A stretch of DNA of 64,000 bases from an uncultured Acidobacteriota bacterium. Lineage in GTDB: Bacteria; Acidobacteriota; Terriglobia; UBA7540. Of this stretch, positions 24-54,817 are shown piece after piece; the first letter of the stretch is position 1; the number at the start of each line of letters is the position of its first letter. The position numbers and the translations under genes were made by a program. The notes beneath the pieces were generated by a model. That model was not told the origin of the DNA, made no database searches, and saw only the letters and a list, made by a program, of their open reading frames with translations. Where the stretch lies: NCBI GenBank assembly GCA_963804995.1, contig CAWDSK010000005.1, positions 800,001-864,000 on the forward strand. The letters are read 5' to 3'.

Positions 24-230
24 CCCCGCCGTGACACACTCCCCCAAATCGGTTATCGGCAAGTTTATGCCGGAACTTGAGCCCAATTCGCCGATCGGAG
101 GCTGGCAGGGATGTGCTGTTCCGATCGTTCGATCGCCCGATCTCCGGATCAATCGATCTCCCGATCGCTATCCCCCGCCGTGACACACTCGCCCGTATCG
201 GTTATCGGCATGATCGACGCCCAGGATGAG
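24..230 (-). promoter_or_regulatory. Two tandem copies (149-bp period) of a sigma-28-like promoter repeat unit
   Basis: Minus strand reads CTCAAG-N15-GCCGATAA (81..53) and CTCATC-N15-GCCGATAA (230..202), each followed by CCGATnyGGGsGAGTGTGTCACGG. Confidence 0.65.
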
Positions 231-19256: not shown

Positions 19257-19512
19257 GGGCGTATGCCTTGACAAGACCTTAGCCGGCTTGCGTAGACCCT
19301 TAGTCCCTGGAGGGCGGCAATGTCCCCCCACCAAGGCGAAGTTGTCCAATAGGTCGCCGATAGTCGTCCCACATCCGCACACCCTCGTCCCACAAACGGA
19401 CACTGTCTTCCCATTTGGGTAGGTGGCCAGCGGCATCGTATTGTCGTCAAAGGGTTTATCGCCCAGTGAAGTGGAAGTATGATTGCGGGGAAGTAGCCGG
19501 AGGAGTCCTTTC

Positions 19513-21960
19513 ATGCACGCCTTGCTTCAAGACGTTCGTTACGGCCTGCGCATGTTGGCCAAGAATCCCGGGTTCACAACGGTGGCCGTGCTGACCCTCG
19601 CGCTCGGCATCGGCGCGAACACTGCGCTCTTTTCCGTGGTGAACGGTGTGCTGCTTAATCCGCTCCGTTACGCGGAGCCGGACCAACTGGTGGCGCTCTA
19701 CTCGCGAACCCCCGAAATGTTGCGAAACTCTATTTCATATCCCAATTTCCTGGACTGGGTGCGCGACAACCGCTCGTTTTCCGCCTTGGCCGGTTTTCGG
19801 GGGGACGACTTCAACTTGACGGGGATGGGCGAGGCCGAACGCGTGCCGGCGGAGATGATCTCCGCCAACTTTTTCCCGTTGCTGGGCGTCAAGCCGGTCA
19901 TGGGCCGGGCGTTTCGTCCGGAAGAGGACCAGGTGGGCGCAGCGCCGGTAATTCTGATCAGCAGTGGCTTGTGGAAACGCAAGTTTGGTTCTTCGCCGGA
20001 CGTGCTGGGAAAGGCGCTCACGCTCAATGGTACGGTGTACACCATCGTCGGCGTGATTCCGGCTGACTTTCATTACCCCGGTAACAACTTCCATCCGAGC
20101 GATGTGTACGTTCCGATCGGCCAATGGAACGAACCCACCTTTCGCGACCGCAAAATCGGTATGGGCATGGACGCGGTCGGGAGGCTCAAGCCGGGCGTCA
20201 CGTTCGCGCAGGCCAATACCGACATGGAGGCGCTCAGCCGGCGGCTGGCTGAGGAGTATCCCGAGGCTGACAAAGGCACAGGCATTACGCTGGTTCGGCT
20301 CAAACAGGACCTAGTGGGCGACATCCAACCATTTCTGCTGATGCTGCTGGCGGCGGTGGGCTTTGTTCTGCTCATTGCGTGCGTCAACGTGGCGAATCTC
20401 CTGCTGGCGCGCTCAACAGCTCGCACCCAGGAGTTGGCCATCCGCTCCGCGCTGGGTGCGAGCCCCGGCCGCGTCATCCGGCAACTTCTGACTGAAAGCA
20501 TCCTCCTCGGGCTGGCGGGTGGCGGCTTGGGTTTGCTGCTGGCCTCGTGGGGCGTGCAAGCGGCGCTCAAGGTGCTGCCGGAGGCCTTGCCGCGCGCCGA
20601 GGAAGTTCATCTCGACGGGCGCGTTCTGTTGGTCATGCTGGCTGTATCGGTGCTGGCGGGTATTTTATTCGGCTTGGCGCCGGCGCTGAAGTATTCGCAA
20701 CGCGATCTTCACGAAACGCTCAAGGAAGGGGGGCGAGGGTTGAGTGGCGCCCGGCATCGCACCCAGAGAGTTTTCGTCGCCGTCGAAATGGCCCTCGCCG
20801 TCGTGCTGCTGGCCGGCGCCGGACTGATGATTCGCAGCCTCTCCAAACTCTGGAGCGTTGACCCCGGATTCGATCGCCACAACGTGCTGACCTTCTACTT
20901 ATCGTTTCCTTCCGCGATCGGCTCCCCCGAGGGTATTCGTGCCACGTGGCGCCAGATTCGCGACGGCCTCGACTCCGTGCCCGGCATCCAGGCTTCCTCC
21001 CTTACGGCTGGCGCTCTTCCCTTGGCGGGCGATTCCGAGCTCCCCTTCTGGCCGGAGGGCCAACCTAAGCCCTCCAGCCAAGCCGAGATGAAGATGGCGC
21101 TCTTTTACCTCATCCAGCCGGACTACTTGAAAGTCATGAGGATTCCGCTCCAGCGCGGCCGTTTTCTTACGCCGCAAGACAACGAGCATTCGCCATTGGT
21201 CATCGTCATTGACGAGCGCTTTGCGCGGACCTATTTCGACAACCAGAATCCTATCGGCAAGCGCGTCAACTTCAACGTCCTGAACACCACGGCGGAAATC
21301 GTTGGCGTGGTTGGGCATGTAAAACAGTGGGGACTCGAAAGCGATTCCAGGGCGTCCATCCAGGCGCAGTGCTACATGCAGCTCTCCCAGCTTCCGGACA
21401 AGTTCATGTCGATGGCGGCCACCGGCGTTGGGGTGGCGGTTCGGACAACATGGTCGCCACTGGCCCAGGTCAGCTCGATTCGGCGCGCCTTGGGCCAGAT
21501 CAATAGCCAGATGGTAATGTACGACACCGAGACTATGGACGGAATCATTTCCAGCTCGCTCGCCGACCGGCGGTTCTCCATGATCCTTCTGGGAATTTTC
21601 GCGGCCCTCGCCCTGGTTATGTCCTGTATCGGAATCTATGGCGTGATTTCCTATCTCGCCAGCCAGCGGACCCATGAGATTGGCATCCGCTTGGCGCTGG
21701 GCGCTGCGGAGCGGGATGTGCTGCGCATGGTTCTGGTGGAAGGCGCCAAGATGGCGCTCGTAGGCGTGGCCATCGGCCTGGTGGCCGCCTTCGGCCTAAC
21801 GTGCCTGATGACGAAAATGCTCTTCGGCGTCAGCGCCCATGACCCGCTCACCCTTGCCGGAGTTGCGGGCCTGTTGACGGTGGTCGCGCTGGCAGCCTGC
21901 TACATCCCCGCATGGCGGGCGACCAAAGTCGATCCCCTGGTGGCGCTGAGGTATGAGTGA
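19513..21960 (+). CDS. ADOP-type duplicated MacB/FtsX ABC permease 1
   Basis: [45 protein letters not shown]. Confidence 0.93.
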   Translation: MHALLQDVRYGLRMLAKNPGFTTVAVLTLALGIGANTALFSVVNGVLLNPLRYAEPDQLVALYSRTPEMLRNSISYPNFLDWVRDNRSFSALAGFRGDDFNLTGMGEAERVPAEMISANFFPLLGVKPVMGRAFRPEEDQVGAAPVILISSGLWKRKFGSSPDVLGKALTLNGTVYTIVGVIPADFHYPGNNFHPSDVYVPIGQWNEPTFRDRKIGMGMDAVGRLKPGVTFAQANTDMEALSRRLAEEYPEADKGTGITLVRLKQDLVGDIQPFLLMLLAAVGFVLLIACVNVANLLLARSTARTQELAIRSALGASPGRVIRQLLTESILLGLAGGGLGLLLASWGVQAALKVLPEALPRAEEVHLDGRVLLVMLAVSVLAGILFGLAPALKYSQRDLHETLKEGGRGLSGARHRTQRVFVAVEMALAVVLLAGAGLMIRSLSKLWSVDPGFDRHNVLTFYLSFPSAIGSPEGIRATWRQIRDGLDSVPGIQASSLTAGALPLAGDSELPFWPEGQPKPSSQAEMKMALFYLIQPDYLKVMRIPLQRGRFLTPQDNEHSPLVIVIDERFARTYFDNQNPIGKRVNFNVLNTTAEIVGVVGHVKQWGLESDSRASIQAQCYMQLSQLPDKFMSMAATGVGVAVRTTWSPLAQVSSIRRALGQINSQMVMYDTETMDGIISSSLADRRFSMILLGIFAALALVMSCIGIYGVISYLASQRTHEIGIRLALGAAERDVLRMVLVEGAKMALVGVAIGLVAAFGLTCLMTKMLFGVSAHDPLTLAGVAGLLTVVALAACYIPAWRATKVDPLVALRYE

Positions 21961-22130
21961 AACGATCAGGTGATCGGGCCATTGGTCCCTTGATCCATTG
22001 GGCGATCTGGTCATCGAGGGAATTTGTGATTTAGCGATCCCGTGATTCTGTGATTGAAAATTCTTGGCAATCACTAAATCGCTAAACCACTCGATCACCA
22101 AATGGCTCGATGACCCGATGTCCCGATTAG
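21961..22130. repeat. Inverted arrays of degenerate 8-mers
   Basis: yrATyGGG-like units on the left, CCCrATry-like units on the right; GTGATTTAGCGAT pairs with ATCACTAAATCGC using G-U. Confidence 0.7.
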
Positions 22131-22139
22131 AGGTTGACG

Positions 22140-24578
22140 ATGAGCACAGTGCTTCAAGATCTGCGTTTCGGCCTGCGTTTGCTTGTGAAGAACCCCGGCT
22201 TCACCGCCGTGGTGGTGCTGACGTTGGCGTTGGGAATAGGAGCTAACTCCACGGTCTTCAGCATCGTGGACCAGCTTTTCCTGCGGCCCTGGCCGGTGAA
22301 GGACCCGGGACGCCTGGGCGTCGTCCTCACGAACAGGCCTAAGGAGCCTGATGATCATCTCTCGTCGTATCCCGATTATCTGGACATCCGCAACGAAGTC
22401 AGCGCGTTCTCCGACGTCGTGGCCTATGGCTGGCGCGGGGGCAGCATAAGCGGCGAAGGCCGGGGCGAGTTTGTGGCCGTCCAGGTGGTATCGCAAAACT
22501 ACTTCGCCGCACTGGGCGTGAAGACTGCGGTGGGCCGGGCCTTTTCGCCGCAGCCGGATCAAGCTTCAGCCGAAGGCCACTCCGTGGTGGTGAGCTACGC
22601 TCTCTGGCAGCGCTATTTCGGCGGCGATCCCTCTCTGTCCGGGAAGACCACCCTGCTCGACGGAAAAGAATTCTCCGTGATTGGCGTCACTCCCCAGGAA
22701 TTTCATGGGCTAAGCCAAGGTTCGTTCTCGGGTATTTGGGTGACCACGGAGGGCTGGGACACCATGGTTCCCGGTGAAAAAGCATCCTATGCTGAGCGGG
22801 ACGACCGCTGGTTCGATTTGGCCGGCCGTCTTCGCCCCGGCGCCCAACTTCCTGAAGCCCGCGCGCAACTCCAGACGCTCGCGAAACGCCTTGCGCTCGC
22901 CTTTCCCGCCTCGAACAAGGACGTCAACTTTCCTGTTTACCCCCCTTCCAAAGTGCGTCATCAAGGTATCACCCTGGGATACTACCTGATGGGCATGGTG
23001 GGGCTGGTTCTCCTGATCTCCTGCGCCAATGTTGCCAATCTCCTGTTGGCGCAAACCGAAGGGAGGCAGCGAGAAATCGCCATGCGCCTGGCGTTGGGCG
23101 CCGGCCGGCGCCGGTTGTTCGGTCAGCTTCTCACCGAAGGACTTCTGCTTGCCTTAGCGGGAGGCGGCCTTGGGGTGTTGGTGGCGTCGTGGCTTATGAA
23201 GTTCGTGCCCACGATTGTTTCCCTCCCGTTCACCACCGACCTTACTCTCGATAGCCGGGTGCTTCTGTTTAGCGTGGCCGTCTCACTGCTGACCGCCGTT
23301 ATCTTTGGACTGGCCCCGGGGCTACGTGCTTCGAAGTGTGACCTGGTGCGAGTCCTTAAGGGTGATGATCCCCATTGGGGACGGGCCGCGGGCCGTCTTC
23401 CGCTGCGCAGCTTGCTGGTGTGCGGAGAAATCGGGCTCTGCGTCGTGTTGCTAGTGGGCTCGGGATTGTTACTCCGCAGCTTGCTATATAGTCAGCAGAT
23501 CAATCCCGGATTTGACCCGAAGAAAAATGTACTCATGCTCACGGTGGCGCCGCCCACACTTTACGGTTACAGCCAGAGCCAGGCGGCCGCGCTCTATCCT
23601 GCCTTGGCGGAGCACGTGGAATCCGTGCCGGGGGTGGTGCGCGCCAGCTATGCTCGGCGGCCTCCCCTTCCCCTGGGGGGTATGGAAGGCGGGGAAACCC
23701 ACGCGGTGATCATTCCCGGCGTCGAGCCGCCCCCGGGAACCGATTATTTCAAGATCCGCTACAACATTGTTGCGCCGAAGTTCTTCCAAACGATCGGCGC
23801 CCACATTATTAAAGGGCGGGAGTTCAACGCGCTCGATACCCCATCAAACGTGCCTGTCGTCATCGTCAATAGCGCCATGGCACGCAGATTTTGGCCGGGC
23901 CAGGACCCGGTAGGAAGATCCATCCAAATTGGAAAAAAGAATTATCAGATTGTGGGCATGGTGGAGGCGGGAAGGTACGTCAACCTTCATGAAACGGCCC
24001 AGCCCTACCTGTTCCTTCCTTTCACACAGAACTTTTCGTTCGAGTGCGTGCTTTTAGTGGAAACGGCCAGCGATCCTCGCGCCTTCATCCGCACTATTCT
24101 GAAAGAAACGGCGGCCGTAGACAAACACCTTCCCATTGTTAGTGCGGTGACCTTTAAGGACTATATGCGAAGCATTCTGGACGTGGAGCGTTCGATGGCG
24201 GCATTGCTCGCGAGCCTGAGCATCCTCGGAATGTTCCTGGCGGCGGTGGGCCTTTACGCGACGGTGGCTTACCTTGTTAATCGGCGTACGCATGAGATTG
24301 GGATACGTATGGCGCTGGGGGCACGCCGGGCCGAGGTTTTGAGGCTCGTCCTGGCCCAGGGAATGCGCTTGAGCGCCGCGGGTGCAGCCATCGGCGTGGT
24401 GGGCGCGTTTGCTGCCTCCCACCTCATGTCGAGTTTCCTTTTCGGTGTGAGGCTTACCGATCCGCTTTGCTACGTGCTGAGCATCCTCGTCGCTATCGGC
24501 GTGACGCTGCTGGCCTGCTACCTCCCCGCGCGCCGGGCGACCAAAGTCGATCCCATGGTGGCGCTGAGGTATGAGTAG
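22140..24578 (+). CDS. ADOP-type duplicated permease 2
   Basis: Same terminal and internal motifs ([28 protein letters not shown]). Confidence 0.93.
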   Translation: MSTVLQDLRFGLRLLVKNPGFTAVVVLTLALGIGANSTVFSIVDQLFLRPWPVKDPGRLGVVLTNRPKEPDDHLSSYPDYLDIRNEVSAFSDVVAYGWRGGSISGEGRGEFVAVQVVSQNYFAALGVKTAVGRAFSPQPDQASAEGHSVVVSYALWQRYFGGDPSLSGKTTLLDGKEFSVIGVTPQEFHGLSQGSFSGIWVTTEGWDTMVPGEKASYAERDDRWFDLAGRLRPGAQLPEARAQLQTLAKRLALAFPASNKDVNFPVYPPSKVRHQGITLGYYLMGMVGLVLLISCANVANLLLAQTEGRQREIAMRLALGAGRRRLFGQLLTEGLLLALAGGGLGVLVASWLMKFVPTIVSLPFTTDLTLDSRVLLFSVAVSLLTAVIFGLAPGLRASKCDLVRVLKGDDPHWGRAAGRLPLRSLLVCGEIGLCVVLLVGSGLLLRSLLYSQQINPGFDPKKNVLMLTVAPPTLYGYSQSQAAALYPALAEHVESVPGVVRASYARRPPLPLGGMEGGETHAVIIPGVEPPPGTDYFKIRYNIVAPKFFQTIGAHIIKGREFNALDTPSNVPVVIVNSAMARRFWPGQDPVGRSIQIGKKNYQIVGMVEAGRYVNLHETAQPYLFLPFTQNFSFECVLLVETASDPRAFIRTILKETAAVDKHLPIVSAVTFKDYMRSILDVERSMAALLASLSILGMFLAAVGLYATVAYLVNRRTHEIGIRMALGARRAEVLRLVLAQGMRLSAAGAAIGVVGAFAASHLMSSFLFGVRLTDPLCYVLSILVAIGVTLLACYLPARRATKVDPMVALRYE

Positions 24579-24581
24579 GGC

Positions 24582-24700
24582 AGTGGTTAGTGGCTAGTGG
24601 TTAGTGGCTTTCAGCTCTCAGCTTTCAGCTCTCAGCCAAAAGCCCGGTGGGCCAGGGGGCCGTAGCTGATAGCTGAGAGCTGAGAGCTGAAAGCTGAGAG
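24582..24700. repeat. Heptamer tandem repeats (AGTGGyT; yTCAGCT and its inverse AGCTGAr)
   Basis: Read directly; the two CAGCT arrays are inverted relative to each other. Confidence 0.85.
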
Positions 24701-24719
24701 TTCAAAGGTGAACACACAA

Positions 24720-27129
24720 ATGAGCACACTACTCCATGACTTGCGTTTCGGCCTGCGCATGCTGGCCAAGAATCCCGGGTTCACAGTGGTGGCGGTGCTG
24801 ACACTAGCCCTCGGCATTGGCGTCAATACTGCGGTTTTCAGTTTACTCCACGATACGATTCTCGCGCGTCTGCCCATTAGCCATCCCCAAGAGTTGGTGC
24901 AGTTAACGTGGCGGGACGGCACGCAGAGCGGGTCACGTTTCAACTGGCCGGAGTACGAACCACTGCTTGCACCGCAGCCGGCGCTGCCTGGTTTGTTCGC
25001 TTACCTCAGCCAAGAAATGAATCTCCGGTCCGGCAATGTCTCTGAGCGCGTGCGCGCGCATTTGGTCTCCGGTTCTTACTACTCAACCCTCGGGGTCAAG
25101 GCTATCCTCGGCCGTACCCTCGCTGCCGGGGATGACCGGCCGGCTGCCGCACCCGCAGCCGTCCTCAGCTATGCATATTGGGGGCGCCGCTTCGGATTTG
25201 ATCACGCGGTCATCGACCGGACGGTCTACCTTGACGGCACACCATTCAGCGTGGTGGGCGTAGCGCCGCCGGAGTTCTACGGTTTGAACAGAGTTGCACC
25301 GCCTGATATCACTTGCCCATTCCACGTTACTCCACGACCCGATGGAGAATCCTACTACGTGTCTTTCTTCGCCCGTCTCAAGCCCGGTGTATCGATTGAG
25401 CAGGCGCGGGCTCAGGTTGCGGTCCGTTTCCACGCACTCCTCGATGAGGAGCTGAAATCTGAGCGACGCTGGATGGGTAACGTGAAGTTAGACGTGCTAT
25501 CCGCCACGACTGGCGAGGAGAGCGTACGCGTGTTCCTGAGGGAGCCGTTGCGGGTGCTCAGCATCCTCGTGGGCGTCGTGTTGCTCATATGCTGCACCAA
25601 CTTGGCTACGTTGTTGCTAGGGCGCGAGGCTGCGCGTTCCCGCGAAATGGCTGTCCGGCTCTCACTCGGAGCGGGCCGCTGGCGCGTCGTTCGCCAGTTG
25701 CTTACTGAGAGCGTGTTACTGGGGTTTGCGGGCGGTGCTCTTGGCCTGTTCGTGGGCTACGGCGTCCACGCCCTGCTACGGACCCTGCTGGCCATCGAGC
25801 AATCCACGAGCCTGCAATTCCGCCTGCACTGGCCGCTGTTAGCTTTTACTGCCAGCGTATCACTCGTCACCGGAATAGCGTTCGGGCTCGTCCCGGCGCT
25901 GCGCGCCACCGGAGTGAACCTCGGCACGATCATGAAAGGCGACGCCCCCGGGCTTGGTCGCCTCTGGCTCGGCCCCACGCGCACGTTCCTCGTCGTGCAG
26001 GTTGCGGCCTCCGTGCTGGTGCTGGTGGGCGCGACGCTTTTCAATCGCACGTTACGCAACCTCGCGGCTGTCGATGTCGGTTTCAACCGTGACCACCTCC
26101 TGCTGATGACCATCGATGCGCGCGAGTCACGCTTTCAAGGCGATCAGATTACTGGCCTTTTGGACGAACTTACGGCGCGGATACGGACCGTACCAGGCGT
26201 GCGTTCAGCCGCTCTCGCGGAGTGGGTACTGTTTGGGGAAGGGGCGAAAACCATCTGGGTGCAGGGCTTCGCACAAACCAGAGACTCGGTATCCTTTAAT
26301 AATGTCGGTCCAGATTTCTTCGTCACTGCCGGCATTCCACTGCTCATCGGGCGAGAGTTTTCCCCGCGCGACCGCCCCGGGTCTCCCCTGGTGGCGATCA
26401 TCAACGAAGCCTTTGCCCAGAAATACTTTCCCGGCCAGAATCCGCTCGGCCGGCGCTTCGGTGACGAGGGACCAAACTCGGCCGGTAAGTTCGAGATCGT
26501 TGGCGTCGTGAAGGAAGGCAGGTCCCAAAGCTTGCGTCTGGCGCCGTACCCGGCGGTCTTCCAATCATTCTGGCAATCTACCCAGCACGCGCCGTTCGTG
26601 CTCCATGTGCGGATCATGGGTAACACGGGAGCGACCGCCGCCAGCCTCGACCAAGCGATTCGTGGAATCGACCCGGGCTTGGTGGTTTATGACGTTCCGG
26701 ACGATGACCGAACAAGTGAACGGGACGTTGCGCCTGGAACGCACCTTCGCGATGCTGTCACTGTTGTTCGGTGCGCTTGCTCTTACTTTGTGCTGTGTCG
26801 GCCTTTACGGTGTCGCCGCCTACTCTGTCACGCGGCGCACTAAGGAAATTGGTATCCGGGTGGCGCTCGGTGCGGGGCGGGTCCAGATCATTTGGCTCTT
26901 TCTCCAACAAACACTGGGGCTCGTTGTTATCGGCGTGGTGATAGGGACGCCCCTTGCATTGGCGTGCGCGAAATTCGTCAAGAGCCTGCTGTTCGGGCTG
27001 ACGCCCGCTGATCCGGCTTCGCTTGCGATCGCGCTGCTCATGCTGGCCGGTGTGGCAGCAGTCGCGTGTGTACTCCCCGCCCGCCGGGCGACGAAGGTCG
27101 ATCCCATGGTGGCGCTGAGGTATGAGTGA
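24720..27129 (+). CDS. ADOP-type duplicated permease 3, +1 frameshift near 26697
   Basis: ORFs 24708..26843 and 26605..27129 join at GACGTT(C)CGGACG; ends VDPMVALRYE. Confidence 0.9.
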
Positions 27130-27283
27130 AACGATCGGGAGATCGGGTGAACGCAAGGGAAACATGAGAAGGGAAACATGAGAATGGAAACTCGAACCTC
27201 GCAGGCGCGAAGGGTGGGGTGGCTTCCGAGTTTCGAATTTCGAGTTTCGATTTTCGGTTTTTGATGAGCCGATGACCCGATTA
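27130..27283. repeat. Mixed 8-mer and inverted 7-mer (GAAAC../TTTCGAr) repeats
   Basis: GAAACATGAGAA x2, GAAACTCGAACCTCG versus CGAGTTTCGAATTTCGAGTTTCG. Confidence 0.7.
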
Positions 27284-27293
27284 GAGGTTGACG

Positions 27294-29711
27294 ATGGGCA
27301 CACTACTCCAAGATCTGCGTTTCGGCCTGCGCCAGCTCAAGCACAATCCTGGCTTCACAGTCGTGGCGGTTCTAACTCTGGCCCTCGGTATCGGCGGGAA
27401 TGTGGCCGTGTTCAGCCTGCTTGACACGGTCTTGTTGCGTCCGCTTCCTTACTCACACCCTGAGCGCCTGTACATGTTTTTCCCATATGAGAAGAATCCC
27501 GAGAACGCCATGGTCGCGTTGTCGTACCCCAATTTCCAGGACTGGCATCAACAGAGCCACACCTTTGAGGCCATGGCCGGGTATCACGAAGAATCTTTCA
27601 ACCTGACCGGCACGACAGAACCCGAACGCTTGGATGGCCTATATAGCACGCCGGGGCTCTTTGCCCTGTTGGGAATTCCCCCGTTGTTGGGTCGTGAGTT
27701 TGGCCCCCATGACGACCCACACGTTGTCCTGGTGACCTACGAGTTGTGGCATCGGCGGTTCGGCGGCATTGCCGGGATTCTTGGCAAGACTATCCATTTG
27801 GAGGGAAGGGCGTACACGGTGCTGGGGGTCCTACCTCCGCATTTCAGTTTTCCACCGCAACGGTGGGGACGCGCGCCCGAGATTTTCGTGCCGGCCATTC
27901 CGAACCCCGACCGTGGCTGGCATTACTTGCGGGTGATCGGACGCCTTGCCCCCGGCGTCACCGAGCAGCAAGCCAGGGCGGAGATGAGCGGAATCTGCGC
28001 CCGACTTGCCCAAGCCTATCCCGATACCGACCGCGACCTGGGAGTTGTGGTTAATTCGCTTAACCAGGAGGTCGTTGGGGGTGTGCGCCAGACGGTGTGG
28101 TTGCTGCTCGGGGCCGTGGCTTTCGTGCTGCTCATCGCGTGCACCAACGTGGCCAACCTGTTGCTCTCTCAAGGTGCCACGCGGGAGCGCGAAATCGCCA
28201 TCCGAAGCGCGGTGGGAGCGACGCGCTTACGTATTGTCCGGCAGTTACTCACCGAAAGCCTGCTGCTGGCAGGCATAGGGGGCGCGCTGGGTGTCGGGCT
28301 GGCATATTGGGCATTACCCTTGCTGGCCTCGGCCATGCCCCAACACACCGGCCTTTTCACGCGGGTTCATGATGCCGGCATCGAACTCAACTCCAACGTA
28401 TTCATTTTCACGGCGCTTCTTTCCGTGCTGTCCTGCGCTCTATGTGGATTGTTGCCTGCTTGGAGAACCACCAAGCCCCTACGAAGCTCCTGGACGGGCG
28501 TTCGTACAGGCCGGATTCGCGGCGCACTGATCGGGCTGGAAGTGGCGTTGTCCTTCGTCTTGCTGGCAGGAGCCGGCTTGATGATGAAAAGCTTGGTCCG
28601 CTTGCTGGAAGTTGACGTCGGGTTCCGAACGGAACGGCTGTTGACCATGGACGTTAATCTGGCGGGTGATAAGTACGCTTCCCGGGAGAACCAGGCGGCC
28701 TTCTTTGGACAGGTGCTGAAACGGTTCGAATCTCTGCCGTCCGTGGCCTCGGTGGGCGCGATTGTGGATTTACCGATGACGCGGACGTGGAATCGGAGTG
28801 GCTTCGAGATTCCCGGGCCCCACCCGAGGCAAGGGGTGACAGTCTATCATGCCGTGAGCCCTAATTACTTCTATACCATGGGAATACCGCTGTTGAACGG
28901 GAGAGAGCTTCTCGCCACCGACTCCGCTCACTCGCCCCTGGTCGGTTTGATCAACCGCAGCATGGCTCAGAAGTACTGGCCGAATGAAAATCCGATTGGT
29001 AGAACCATCGTAGCCTCCCACGCCGTTGTGGTTTCGACTGCGAAAGGGTCCAACGTCGAGTTCAAACCCCAGGAGCTGGAGATCGTTGGAATCGTGGGTG
29101 ACGTTCGGCAGCTCGCCCTGGAAGCGCCGCCTGTCCCTGAACTGTTCATACCGTATACGCAGTGGCCCTCGAATGAGATGTCCCTGGTGCTGCGGACTGG
29201 CTCCGAAACCTCCTCTCTGATCCCTGCGGTCAAGAAAGAGATTTGGCGAGTGGACCCCGACCAGCCAGTCACCGATATTAGGACCATGGATGAACTGGTT
29301 TCGACCGAAGCGGCCGGGAGACGGTTTGTGCTGGAATTGATTGGAGTGTTTGCAGCAATCGCCCTGGTGCTGGCGGCAGTAGGGATCTACGGCGTGGTTT
29401 CCTACGGCACGCGGCAGCGCACGCATGAAATCGGCATCCGCATGGCCCTTGGCGCTAGAGCACAACAGATTTTATGGCTGGTCGCCGGCCAAAACGCCAA
29501 GTGGATACTAATTGGGATCACCACCGGTGTTGCCAGTGCTTTCGCCTTAACACGACTCCTGGCGGCATACCTCTATGCGGTTCGACCCACCGACCCGCTG
29601 ACGTTTGTGGCTGTCGCGTTGCTACTGCTCGCCGTGGCGTTACTGGCCGTCTATCTTCCCGCCCGCCGGGCGACGAAAGTCGATCCCATCGTGGCGCTGA
29701 GGTATGAATAG
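27294..29711 (+). CDS. ADOP-type duplicated permease 4
   Basis: [37 protein letters not shown]. Confidence 0.93.
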
Positions 29712-29955
29712 AGCTGTCAGCTCTCAGCTATCAGCGGTCAGCCAAAGTAACGCAGCGCCCCGATGCATCGGGGCGGTTCTTCCTGTGTCATGTGAGCGAA
29801 CATATCGTGGCGTGGCACAGCGGCCCGGGTTGGAGATTTGCGGGTTGTGCCGAGGAAGGATCGCGGACCCCAAAGGCGGGGGACCGCGCTACGAAACCCA
29901 CCGCCTCACCCCCGGTCCGTCTCCCCTAATGCGGCGAGGAGAAAAGTCGGATACC

Positions 29956-47269: not shown

Positions 47270-47367
47270 CACCTTTTTTCAGTTGGTATCTTGATGATTC
47301 CTTTACGTTATAATTCGATATACATATCGACATAAAGCAAGTAAAAACTAGGCATCAGGCAACGGAG

Positions 47368-47478
47368 AACAGAAGGCAGTAGGCAGAAGGCGGTAAGCAG
47401 TAGGCAGAAAGCAGAAGGCAGAAGGCAGAAAGCGGAAGGCAGAAAGCGGAAGGCGGGAGGCAGAAAGTCAAAGGCGGA
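47368..47478 (+). repeat. About 15 heptamer tandem repeats (GCrGwAr)
   Basis: Read directly; a loosely complementary TTTTGCC array lies at 47714-47740. Confidence 0.9.
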
Positions 47479-48228
47479 AAATCAATAACATCTACTCGTT
47501 TTGGCGCCTTAGGCCGGAGGGGACGATTGAGTGGTTCGCCCTTTTGGGACTCATGGTAGCGCAGGGCCTGCACTCCGGCCCCTTCGTTTCCCTCAGGGCA
47601 GGCTCTGCGGCTCTTCCATCGCGCCGTGCTTTGGGCGGCGCGGCGACAGAGGGGGCCGGGGTGAGGGAGGGCCAAGGTCGAGCGGAGGAGCACCGTGAGC
47701 AAGGACTTCTTACTTTTGCCTTTTGCACTTTGCCTTGCCCTTGCGGCCCCGCTGTCCTGCGCTACTTACCCCCCCGCGCGGCTCTTCGCCCCAGACAAGT
47801 TCTCGGACAATGGGCCGCTGGCCTTGCATTTTGGGGCTACCGGTAGCCCGAAAGTGATTTTTGCCTATTGACATCGGCCTATAATAAATGTCACAATAAA
47901 GCTTACTTAGCGGGCGGTGCTGCAGTACGGAATTCTTTTTGCCCGCAGTGGATCTTTCTCATGTCTCTAATAGAGCGGCACAAGTTGAGTCCGGCTGAAC
48001 TGGCGCCGTTACCTGCGTATCATACCCGCGGCCTGCTTAGCGCGAGCGACCGGGGGTTCAACCAAGATCAAGTTGGAACGGCGCTGGCTAGGAGTTGGGC
48101 AACCGCAGGGCCGCCCTCCAAGGCCCAGGCGAAATGCCTGACTTTTGCCCAGTTACAGATTGTCAATTTGTCCGCGAAAATGGGGCCGGGATGCACAATT
48201 CAGAAAAACATCAAAATGACGATTGCTC

Positions 48229-48470
48229 CCAATAACATAATGAAAACAAAGGGTCGTAAAACGACACAATGTTGTCTACCCAATAACTTATGCAAAACAA
48301 AAGGTTTATCGAATATGCCAATAACTTACTGAAAATGCTTTAGATAGCCTAATTAAATGGTCCCCAGATCACCCAAAAGCCGCACAAACCCCCACTAGGC
48401 CAATAACTTAAAGAAAATAAACAACTTGAGATCTGCATCTCCAGGCGATGCCAATAACTTTCTGAAAAGG
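48229..48470 (+). repeat. Five AT-rich direct repeats CCAATAACwTwnnsAAAA
   Basis: Starts at 48229, 48280, 48318, 48400 and 48451. Confidence 0.85.
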
Positions 48471-48587
48471 CGGGAGATATTAGCAGGAATAAAATGTCCA
48501 TCCCTCGGGCCCGAGAAACCTTAGCCCAAGGCGCAACGATCGGTACGTTACAGGGAGTTCGCCGCATAGTCACCTCCACCGATTTAA

Positions 48588-49097
48588 CCCGCCCGTGACG
48601 CACTTCCCCACATCGGTTATCGGTAGGTTGGCATCCGAACATGAGCCCCCAAAGCGACTTGGAGTTGGGCAATCGCCAGATCGCGAGACCACTCAATGAC
48701 TCAATGGTCCGATGATGCAATCACCCGATGGCCGGCGCCGGCCGCGATACATTCCCCCATATCGGTTATCGGCGGGTTGCCGTCCGATCATGAGCCCACG
48801 AACCTCGGTCCCGTCGGGAGCGAGTGGTACCCGACAGGCAGGCGGGGGCCAAGCGGCGCATGACAGGCGGGCGCGACCAAGCGCCGGTGACAAGCAGGCG
48901 GAGTCACACGCCGCCCAGCTAACCAACCCCGGCCGCGACACTCCCCCGCGCTGACAGCTCACAGACGACAGCTAACAGTTACTTCCCGACCCCGAGCCCC
49001 TAACTCCCAATCCCTAACGCCTAACCCCGATCCTCCCGCCCCGGCCGCGACACACTCCCCCACATCGGTTATCGACGGAACGGGTCCTCGCCTTGAG
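48588..49097 (-). promoter_or_regulatory. Cluster of three complete and one partial sigma-28-like promoter repeat units
   Basis: CTCATG-N15-ACCGATAA (48645..48617), CTCATG-N15-GCCGATAA (48794..48766), CTCAAG-N15-GTCGATAA (49097..49069); partial unit at 48928-48947. Confidence 0.65.
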
Positions 49098-49265
49098 ATT
49101 AGATTGCAGAGAGGGTCACTTCAGCGGAAAGCGCCGACCCGAGTCTTTGGTTTTGTGGACTTGACGAACGATGGGTGATGACGGGTTCCTTACAAGGACT
49201 ACGGTCCACGGCAGGCAGAAGGCGGAAGCTGAACTTTGAAAGCCAACAGCCAGCCGCCGTTTTTC

Positions 49266-49979
49266 TCAATTCATCTTGACGTGCTTGGCGCCTTCGGCAG
49301 CATTCAATTCGAACTTAGAGCCAGGCAAGTCGCGATTCACTCTCACACCGGTATAGCGTGCGAGGATGTAGTCGCCATCGCTTTCGTAGAATTTCTGCTG
49401 CGTGGGCAGCCAGGATTCTTCGCTGATCCAGATCTCGATTTTGACGAGTTGGGTCGCGACGTTTTCCTTGCGAGGTGAGAGCTCCAGCAGCACGGTCGTG
49501 TCGCCATCCAGATCTTCTTCCTTGACATACTTGATGTTGTAGTTTTTCTTCAATTCGCCGGTATCCGACCCGAAGCCCAGGAGCAGGAACTGCTGCACCA
49601 GGTCTGTCTTCTGTCCCAGGTCGTATTCCTGAACCTGGTTAATTTTTGGAAGGTAAATCTCCGCCTTGTTCTTCTTAAAGAGAATGATCTTGCGGTCGGG
49701 CTTTTCGAATTCAAGCCGAATCTCCGTACTCTTACCTTTGCGGAAGAGGAGTTGGCCAGTCTCTGTGGACTTGTCATTCACCAGCACGGTGACTTTTGTG
49801 TAATCGAGATTGGCGGTAAGAGTATGCAGGTCCTTGGACGCCTTATTCATCTGGGTGAGGATCTCTGAGAGGTCGGCCGGCACTTTGCCCTTACGAGCCA
49901 TGCCCGGCTGCCCCACCATGAGAGTGAATACGACTGCGGCAAGCAGAGCCCGCAGGCACGAATTGAGGAAATTTCGCAT
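49266..49979 (-). CDS. LolA-like periplasmic lipoprotein carrier protein
   Basis: Signal peptide; TLTANL..T, G.LLF.K, RLEF.KP, IYLP.INQV, LELSP, IWI...WLP, F-terminal pattern. Confidence 0.7.
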   Translation of the reverse strand: MRNFLNSCLRALLAAVVFTLMVGQPGMARKGKVPADLSEILTQMNKASKDLHTLTANLDYTKVTVLVNDKSTETGQLLFRKGKSTEIRLEFEKPDRKIILFKKNKAEIYLPKINQVQEYDLGQKTDLVQQFLLLGFGSDTGELKKNYNIKYVKEEDLDGDTTVLLELSPRKENVATQLVKIEIWISEESWLPTQQKFYESDGDYILARYTGVRVNRDLPGSKFELNAAEGAKHVKMN

Positions 49980-53404: not shown

Positions 53405-54817
53405 TCACGCCCCCACCCTGTGCGCCCGGCGTTCCCAGAAGTCTTCGAAGCGACCGCTGAGTTTGTAACACCGCAGAGCGATGATGGCATTGGAGCCGCG
53501 CACGGTCCAATGCATGCCCGAACGTTTTAGGCGCGACCCCACGACGACCCTGCAACCCGCCTCCAGAACCCCTGAGGAAGTACACAGGTGCTGGGCATGA
53601 AATTCCGCGTAGCGCATGCGGTGCCGGTTGCGCTGCAAGTACTGAAGGCAGTTGCGGGCTTCCGGTGAGCGGGCCGCATGGCGGGCCAGCGCCGTTGTCA
53701 GACTCCGCCAACGCCCGCCATCCAATTCTTGGTGCCGACGTTGCGCCCAGCGATGGGATGCCTCCGCTTGCCCATAGAGGGCCTTGGCCACTTGGCTCAA
53801 ATGCTCCTTCACGTGGTAACGATCCACGATTTGCAGGGCTTGCGGGAACACCTCCGCGGCGATGTTCCAGATCCAGGGAGCCCCGTCGCCGATCACCACT
53901 TGGCGAGAGGCTTGCCCGAAGTCTCGACGCTTCGCCTCACGCTCGACGCGCTGGGTAAATGCTGCGATCTGGGAGTCGGTGTCGCGGCAGGCCGCCGTCT
54001 CGATGGCCGCCGAGTAGCTGACCGAGCCAGCATCACGCCGGGGCCGGCCTTCGGCATCGCGCGCTTCCGCGCTCCAGATGGCGCAGACCTTGACCTCGCG
54101 GGTTTGGGCGGAGCCATCCGGCTGCTTGCCCGCTCGCCCCGTGAGTTCCTCCTTGCGCATGGGAATGCCGGTACCATCCAGGCCGAGATAGAGGGTGGGC
54201 GGCAAGGGTCCTTCCCTCACCGCCTCCACCGGTTGGCGTTCATCCTCGGCGACTTCCGCTCCCAGCGCCTCCGCCGTACGCTCCACCTGCTTGGCACTTA
54301 CTTCCACGCCCGCCAATTCCCCGAGGAGTTCACGCCCTTCTTGAAAGCTCACCAAGGCTCCCACCGTGCCCACCATGCGTGTCACCGCCGGGGACAGAGA
54401 AGTGTCCTCCATTCCCCACTGCTGGTCACGAGGACAGAACCCGCGCTGGCAGGCAGCACAATAATAGTAGGCGCGCTCCAGCCGTAATTCGCCCAGCACG
54501 GTCTGGAAAGGCTTGGCCCGCCGGTCTACATAGCGCGCGGGCTGACCGCAGGAACACGGCCGACGGGCTCCGGTAAAGTCGGAGTGGTCGGCATTCAGCC
54601 GCTGCTCCACCACCCGCGCGGCGAAGCGCAAAGCCTGACGGCGTACGGCCGTTTCCACCGCCTCGAAGTCCAGAGCCGCCGTGGCTTCCCGACCCACCAG
54701 GCGCTCAATCTCAGCGGTGAGGTCGTGCGCCAGAGCCTCGCCGAGTGCGGTTTTTTTTAACCTCGGCTTGCCCTTCTTCCTCCCGGGCTTCCAGCTGGGC
54801 ATCCGCCCATTGCTCAC
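53405..54817 (-). CDS. ISKra4 family DDE transposase
   Basis: CSCG...RAYYYCAAC; LDGTG; GDGAPWIW; DRYH; SGVLEAGCR..RLKRSGMHW; true start uncertain. Confidence 0.9.
   Translation of the reverse strand: MSNGRMPSWKPGRKKGKPRLKKTALGEALAHDLTAEIERLVGREATAALDFEAVETAVRRQALRFAARVVEQRLNADHSDFTGARRPCSCGQPARYVDRRAKPFQTVLGELRLERAYYYCAACQRGFCPRDQQWGMEDTSLSPAVTRMVGTVGALVSFQEGRELLGELAGVEVSAKQVERTAEALGAEVAEDERQPVEAVREGPLPPTLYLGLDGTGIPMRKEELTGRAGKQPDGSAQTREVKVCAIWSAEARDAEGRPRRDAGSVSYSAAIETAACRDTDSQIAAFTQRVEREAKRRDFGQASRQVVIGDGAPWIWNIAAEVFPQALQIVDRYHVKEHLSQVAKALYGQAEASHRWAQRRHQELDGGRWRSLTTALARHAARSPEARNCLQYLQRNRHRMRYAEFHAQHLCTSSGVLEAGCRVVVGSRLKRSGMHWTVRGSNAIIALRCYKLSGRFEDFWERRAHRVGA

Follow-up and report, generated by a model that had tools for sequence, protein, structure and literature searches.

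The genome under study (G000), that of a soil bacterium, carries a repeat of about 55 bp that is dispersed between genes, has the two-box geometry of a promoter, matches a class of host promoters, forms mosaic arrays whose positions turn over between lineages, and is polar with respect to mobile DNA. In our preferred, still tentative reading, each unit is likely a promoter for a sigma-28-family factor and likely also the inward-facing end of a mostly nonautonomous element derived from ANR, a name that we coined from the N-terminal motif of an uncharacterized multicopy gene family.

The window (the whole stretch of DNA analyzed, 64,000 nucleotides; G000:C5:800001-864000) contained five matches to the two-box pattern, compared to 0.03 ± 0.17 expected from 100 shuffles. 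As the earlier note had described, all five were on the minus strand in two loci (48-81, 197-230, 48612-48645, 48761-48794, and 49064-49097), with start-to-start spacings of 149, 48415, 149, and 303, and the 303-bp interval does hold a partial unit, which starts at 48947. Both loci were present as reported; the left cluster, however, has a third unit just past the window edge (C5:799937). The 149-bp spacing held within both window clusters but is merely a common period elsewhere (within-cluster gaps in G000, 105 to 943 bp); among the matches listed, gaps in other genomes ranged from 76 to 180 bp. The features of the two loci are as follows.

24..81, minus strand: second-cluster unit with -10 box 60-53 and predicted +1 at 47; next to it, just outside the window, comes a third unit
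173..230, minus strand: second-cluster unit with -10 box 209-202 and predicted +1 at 196
47804..47849, plus strand: left end of the element; CGGACAAT box at 47804 and perfect palindrome GGGCTACCGGTAGCCC (16 bp) at 47834-47849
47868..47897, plus strand: sigma-70-like promoter (TTGACA-18-TG-CACAAT) facing the units; 10 of 12 consensus matches
47961..48332, plus strand: internally deleted ANR-family frame beginning MSLIERHKLS; 9/15 identities to ANR N-termini, E ~0.05
48229..48460, plus strand: AT-rich repeats with five CCAATAAC copies, a typical ANR 3' tail; 76% over 286 nt to the ANR gene tail at C4:177185-178114
48588..48645, minus strand: unit 3, directed at the ANR remnant; -10 box 48624-48617 and predicted +1 at 48611
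48737..48794, minus strand: unit 2; -10 box 48773-48766, predicted +1 at 48760
48927..48947, minus strand: partial unit, leader only, without promoter boxes
49040..49097, minus strand: unit 1, labeled oldest; -35-like box 49097-49093, -10 box 49076-49069, predicted +1 at 49063, constant leader
49266..49916, minus strand: host LolA-like gene (PF03548) behind the array; a flank and not part of the element

Two things had escaped the earlier note, namely, the roughly 200 copies of the unit genome-wide and the deleted ANR element immediately downstream in the window. A profile search (E<=0.1) returned 202 unit copies in G000, in 81 clusters of 1 to 7, and none of the 81 was of mixed strand. The 11-base core alone has 76 exact occurrences, of which one is a chance match. 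No unit was located inside a gene confidently called in G000 by a simple gene caller written for the analysis. The orientation shared with an upstream operon, pointed out for the window, turned out not to be general: units in G000 showed no orientation preference relative to flanking genes, the 81 clusters being distributed 23/21/20/16/1 over the possible arrangements.

The strict unit pattern was matched in 23 of the 28 other genomes of the genus, with copy numbers from 0 to 140. Among 300 other genomes of the class, 4 had matches, and three of these belong to the genus. With a looser pattern, 35 of 132 family genomes had matches, and three or more copies were found only in the genus and in G267. 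A motif scan of a genome collection gave at least 78 matches, all those listed being from Acidobacteriota or Terriglobia, and the scan of viral contigs gave 0. The host of G000 belongs to Terriglobia, to which homologs of a neighboring protein family are also attributed. Among the matches listed, some relatives had simple tandem arrays with a period of 97 to 180 bp; one such locus (L047; G017:C24:421000-430600) comprised 17 units at a 97-bp period, with alternating spacer types and a duplicated block. By pattern and position, the unit is a short, intergenic, promoter-shaped repeat of about 200 copies that recurs across the genus. Literature searches by terms other than the exact motif combined with the taxon listed no description of this repeat.

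Promoter architecture and host promoter classes

The unit consensus was YTCAT(C/G)-N15-RYCGATAR-CCGA(T/A)-RYGGGGRAGTGTG, with boxes that can be written as TCATS-N15 or, equivalently, as YTCAT-N16. The fixed distance between the boxes noted for the window was retained, with the reading corrected to TCAT, 16 nt, and RYCGATAA (a five-base box plus 15 nt). When the -35 region was left out of the search pattern, TCA was still found at -22 in 139 of 151 distinct units; it was at -23 or -21 in 5 and absent in 7. This genome-wide fixed position, together with spacers that share length alone between distant genomes, bears out the statement that the spacer varies in sequence and not in length. The -10 box was GCCGATAA in 86 and ACCGATAA in 68 of the 202 units, and the variants found in units (GCCGATAA/G, ACCGATAA, and GTCGATAA) are the same as those of host promoters. 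With the fixed spacing, the host-like -10 variants, and a purine that most copies carry six bases downstream of the -10 box, the sigma-28-family architecture first suggested from the window was supported.

The more specific assignment to the flagellar FliA consensus was not. The FliA/WhiG (sigma-28) consensus given in PMC8325347 comprises TAAA at -35 and GCCGATAA at -10. In G000, the flagellin, flgM, and cheA-like promoters carry TTAAG, TAAAG, or TCAAG, followed by 14 nt and the -10 box, and the TTAAG/TAAAG-N14 arrangement of flagellin and flgM was recovered at 8 of 9 loci in relatives (flagellin TTAAG-N14 in 5/5, flgM TAAAG-N14 in 3/4). The units have a GCCGATAA-like -10 box, but they lack a TAAA(G) -35 box at the flagellin/flgM spacing; theirs is TCATS-N15, with a spacer one base longer than that of the flagellar promoters of the genus. 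The fliA gene itself, whose presence had been at issue, was found in the flagellar cluster of G000 (C2:295157-295939), and the genome encodes three further FliA/WhiG-type sigma factors.

Boxes and spacing of the unit type were conserved at two host loci. At a gene that we take to be HDOD-like, TCATG-N15-GCCGATAR was present about 49 nt before an anchor in the gene at 19 of 25 loci of the genus, including G000; the other loci had TTATG (three), a spacer one base shorter (one), or nothing (two), and this promoter was not found at 5 loci from a sister genus. At the second locus, TCAAG-N15-GYCGATAR was located divergently upstream of a FliA paralog (C9:163190-164116) in G000 and in 5/5 orthologs and at 0/6 other paralog loci. 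Two further candidates were poorly conserved: the TCATS-N15 candidate at glgP occurred in G000 and at 2 of 28 other loci, being absent from the closest ortholog, and a galT-like N15 candidate was conserved in 0/8. Judged from these alignments, the units match a second host promoter class that is distinct from the flagellar class. The nonflagellar FliA paralog would be the probable factor that reads them. We infer that the unit is a working promoter for a sigma-28-family factor. Codistribution of units and paralog was considered and rejected as not specific, the paralog being present in 90 of 132 other family genomes and multicopy units in only one genus and one other genome.

Several observations concern the sigma factors and their loci. 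In six genomes (L344 and L400-L404), TCAAG-N15-GYCGATAR is located several hundred base pairs upstream of the FliA paralog on the opposite strand; no conserved reading frame follows this promoter, and a short gene or a small RNA linked to the paralog is a candidate here. Two more FliA/WhiG paralogs of G000 (C4:210160-210867 and C6:5354-6106) are situated in mobile-looking regions, and extra copies also occur in several relatives. The three genomes with TTATG at the HDOD-like gene (G012, G016, and G324; L069-L071) had no units by either pattern, a coincidence that is a hint only, since these genomes are 58 to 82% complete and probably kin.

Mosaic arrays and the adjoining ANR element

Pairwise comparison of 151 canonical units revealed 151 pairs that share the upstream 40 nt without the body, 174 that share the body without the upstream sequence, and 45 that share both. 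Long homology blocks often start at -4 to -6, and linkage decays over about -4 to +22 with no sharp point, polymorphic core positions being weakly linked to both sides. The bodies consist of recurrent modules, namely, GGGAGAGGG-type hairpins and short tandem tracts of the kind that flanks four-helix-bundle genes. Of 121 inner bodies, 66 had at least one of seven motif types, compared to 7% of random intergenic windows. A conserved core thus alternates with recurrent variable bodies, as in arrays of the NIME type. The window itself has heptamer tracts (GGCAGAA and CTGAGAG types) at 47342-47479, 24607-24707, and 29712-29742, and the four-helix-bundle genes of G000 are flanked by inverted heptamer tracts, with 15 matches genome-wide.

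The positions of the arrays turn over and are mostly lineage specific. Of 35 loci in the relative G092, 32 could be placed, and 3 of these 32 had a G000 unit at the orthologous site, with flanks about 79% identical. The repeat is thus dispersed and multicopy at lineage-specific sites, as MITEs are. The mobile promoter cassette that had been listed among the options was supported. At the window locus, 25 of 26 relatives had no unit downstream of the LolA-like gene (fetched DNA, up to 1.5 kb). The exception was G092, in which an orthologous unit 1 is present at the same site with the same upstream sequence and spacer; because G092 has only this ortholog, G000 has units 2 and 3 and the deleted element in addition. 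The downstream sequence of window unit 3 is found again, behind a different spacer, in another copy of the element at C6:738753-739716.

The assignment of the sequence facing unit 3 to ANR is based on the left end together with the 3' tail, protein similarity being weak by itself. Likewise, 0.7 sigma-70-like sites are expected per shuffled region, so that the single match in the window is weak alone; most of the 68 left ends have a TTGACA/TTGCAA box. On this comparison, the window locus is a deleted ANR element with units facing its remnant. The left-end module (CGGACAAT box, GGGCTACCGGTAGCCC palindrome, and sigma-70-like promoter) was found in 68 copies in G000. Of these, 23 face a unit within 2.5 kb, compared to 2.5 ± 1.5 at random, and 45 face no unit within that distance; the three other arrangements gave counts of 1, 1, and 0. 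Seen from the arrays, ANR hallmarks were located in front of 28 of the 81, behind 4, and on the wrong strand in 1 and 1, and 53 had no ANR hallmark. The polarity was the same in G092, where 9 of the 35 loci had ANR matches, all of them antisense and downstream. Across the family, 27 ANR loci (mostly full length; 3 of 30 without a recognizable N-terminus were left out) had an antisense unit in the fetched flank in 3 cases and a sense unit in 1.

Behind an array, the nearest gene is at a median distance of 273 bp, and the gap in front is longer, with a median of 1071 bp. A transposase, reverse transcriptase, toxin-antitoxin, or restriction gene was the first neighbor in front in 21 of 77 cases and the first neighbor behind in 3 of 80 (Fisher p 3.5e-5; 80 of the 81 clusters scanned, neighbors classed by hand from Pfam matches). 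Because the cargo genes in front are of mixed orientation, antisense control is not general, and a consistent co-orientation of units with host genes or cargo was rejected. The exact GGGCTACCGGTAGCCC palindrome was confined to G000 among 133 family genomes, and a related palindrome, TTTCCTACC(C/G)GTAGGAAA, was found upstream of ANR genes at L084, L088, L090, and L105; the left-end palindrome module looks like a lineage-specific operator.

ANR proteins (L021-L023, P0001, and relatives) had 13,771 representatives at E<0.001. Their genes carry AT-rich repeats behind the stop codon, and many truncated copies occur per genome. Searches of Pfam, PHROGs, NCBIfam, PDB sequences, the ESM Atlas, Foldseek PDB, and viral libraries gave no match of substance that would indicate a function, and the predicted structure was an all-helical model with no fold match; thus, nothing marks ANR as a mobility enzyme or supplies a cognate transposase for the arrays. 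The 23 composites reaching from a left end to the outermost unit measure 0.4 to 2.2 kb, and most lack a whole ANR gene. About a third of the arrays can thus be described, in the manner of MITEs, as internal deletion derivatives of a coding element. Terminal inverted repeats and target duplications were not detected in the 23 composites (longest match, 7.8 to 7.9 nt, compared to 8.0 to 8.2 in cross-pair controls), with the proviso that the composite ends are not sharply defined and very short target duplications could be missed. We infer that elements derived from ANR brought the units in and spread them as their own inward-facing ends.

Among the nearest genes, no recombinase family was a consistent neighbor of the arrays. 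Reverse transcriptase genes (49), Y1 transposase-like genes (14), and many insertion sequences are present in G000, none of them tied specifically to the units. One group II intron is present in 38 near-identical copies (G000, L024-L031 plus 30 further sites), inserted, among the matches listed, at one shared position within a family of REP-like hairpins. An explanation of the unit as an end or a target of group II introns was rejected: the leader contains GTGYG, but the 38-copy intron, among the matches listed, uses a different REP and has other ends. Elsewhere in the window, a transposase-like gene occupies 53405-54817, and a copy with the same N-terminus on C4 (L139) matches UPF0236. Four tandem paralogous large genes, presumably permease-like, are located at 19483-29711 with a period of about 2.6 kb.

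Alternative readings and proposed mechanism

The core might primarily be a recombinase or transposase site, a role that Bentley et al. proposed for dRS3 (PMC1797815), with an enzyme crossing over in or near CCGATAACCGAT and stacking modules and with a promoter likeness that is inherited or secondary. That crossovers map to the core, that the CCGAT-AA-CCGAT repeat and the leader are conserved beyond promoter needs, and that the bodies fall into recurrent module families all fit such a site. The core is not palindromic, however; its polymorphic positions link weakly in both directions and define no sharp cut point, no recombinase family is a consistent neighbor, and neither the fixed TCA at -22 nor the conserved host promoter match needs a recombinase. 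On balance, we consider this reading unlikely, if by no means far-fetched. Less probable still is that each unit is a small regulatory RNA gene under sigma-28-family control, whose constant 5' end would bind a protein or target ahead of a variable body. The leader is almost confined to the promoter context (138 matches in units versus 21 elsewhere, several of the latter being diverged units); the promoter architecture and the presence of one unit at the same site in two species likewise speak for an RNA gene. The discrete small-RNA genes put forward in the earlier note nevertheless found no support: of the 202 units, 8 had a terminator-like hairpin in the 200 nt that follow the predicted start, mutual information across units revealed no base-pair covariation (the top covarying pairs reflected subfamily linkage), and Rfam returned nothing at the gathering score in the window and nothing at E<=1 in 47300-49300. 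Neither a conserved structure with covariation nor a defined 3' end, as expected of a small RNA family, was thus seen, the bodies swap freely, and copy numbers range widely within the genus at mostly unshared positions.

About 200 near-consensus sites, set against roughly 20 to 30 candidate host promoters of both spacer classes, would load the holoenzyme, and the host might keep the arrays as decoys that titrate sigma-28-family holoenzyme and set the threshold of its regulon. Yet few or no copies are found in relatives that have the same sigma factors, and a decoy needs neither a constant leader nor a polarity to mobile DNA; we regard decoys as improbable, while titration could be a side effect of the arrays. 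That the repeat is a neutral satellite, a fragment coding for a conserved peptide, or an artifact of assembly is disfavored and seems the most improbable of these alternatives. Simple tandem arrays do occur in some relatives, and an ATG is fixed on the opposite strand in 57 of 76 exact-core matches, but the frames from this ATG are short and unrelated, and coding on either strand was rejected on account of stops and of 1- and 2-nt indels in the leader region. Furthermore, the copies differ from one another, occur in 23 other genomes, and keep the box spacing while the spacer diverges.

For the reading that we prefer, a promoter that is also the inward-facing end of an ANR-derived element, the following course of events can be envisaged. 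Elements would arrive at new intergenic sites, where recombination or slippage between conserved cores (about -4 to +22) could stack further units, and core exchange would shuffle REP-type and short-repeat bodies between them. Whenever the sigma factor is active, each unit may start a transcript that has a constant 5' leader, is not terminated, and extends into the element. This transcript would oppose the sigma-70-like promoter of the element and could damp the element transcript by antisense pairing or collision; alternatively, it might supply an RNA that the element needs. Against this reading, the link between arrays and ANR is partial, and the 24 nt after the -10 box are conserved more strictly than a promoter requires.

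A bolder version, to which we give little credence at present, takes the units to be the right end of a mobile element of a new class, one without a known transposase. An all-helical ANR protein would then be encoded between an operator-gated sigma-70 promoter and stacked, opposing promoters of a dedicated sigma-28 paralog, such that a host sigma factor would switch the element and its RNA on or off. The promoter ends would grow head to tail and collect REP modules, toxin-antitoxin genes, and restriction genes. Independently of this version, the data define two separable sigma-28-type promoter classes in Terriglobia, indicate a probable target consensus for an unstudied FliA paralog, and tie the very large, unannotated ANR family to defined element ends, which offers a handle on the spread of abundant acidobacterial genes. 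If the units are active, the sites that one alternative sigma factor gains on mobile repeats would outnumber those at its own genes about 10 times, one host regulator would be connected to hundreds of new transcription starts, and repeat-driven rewiring or titration of a regulon would become directly testable.

Comparison with known systems

FliA/WhiG promoters (PMC8325347) resemble the units in the -10 box and its tolerated variants, the fixed distance between two boxes, the purine at the predicted start, and the presence of the sigma family. In contrast, the unit -35 box is TCAT(C/G), the spacer is one base longer than in the flagellin, flgM, and cheA promoters of the genus, and the copies are not followed by a host gene and have a constant leader. 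Sigma-28-dependent small RNAs of Campylobacter and E. coli (PMC4626219, PMC10578931) share with the units noncoding transcription from sigma-28 promoters, which for the units is predicted; a few defined RNAs there stand against about 200 mosaic units without terminators here. CRISPR and integron cassette arrays were rejected as models, as the bodies vary in length, recur, and hold no genes, and no cas gene or integron integrase was found among the 157 nearest genes.

ISPpu9 with its ssr9 module (IS110 family; PMC12288879) likewise has a small noncoding module 3' of an element gene that also occurs alone in a REP-rich setting. There, an IS110 transposase and circular intermediates were shown, whereas ANR matches no transposase; ssr9 moreover follows its gene as a defined RNA gene, while the unit faces the gene. 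Correia and REP2 repeats and promoter-bearing MITEs (PMC3184786) are similarly high-copy, intergenic sequences that carry promoters and are internally deleted from a larger element. The units differ from them in that neither terminal inverted repeats nor a target duplication was detected and in that the promoters are those of an alternative sigma factor, face inward, and are stacked head to tail. In the Neisseria NIME arrays (PMC1797815), a short core is likewise set between many body families of 50 to 200 bp in dynamic intergenic arrays into which other repeats and insertion sequences insert. The dRS3 core, however, is a 20-bp inverted repeat in arrays at generally consistent positions, while the unit core is asymmetric and promoter shaped and occurs in a single-strand orientation at mostly lineage-specific sites. 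The repeat fails the defining tests of each of the families compared, and by analogy it appears to be an undescribed promoter-bearing mosaic repeat that may work much as the NIME and Correia repeats of Neisseria do.
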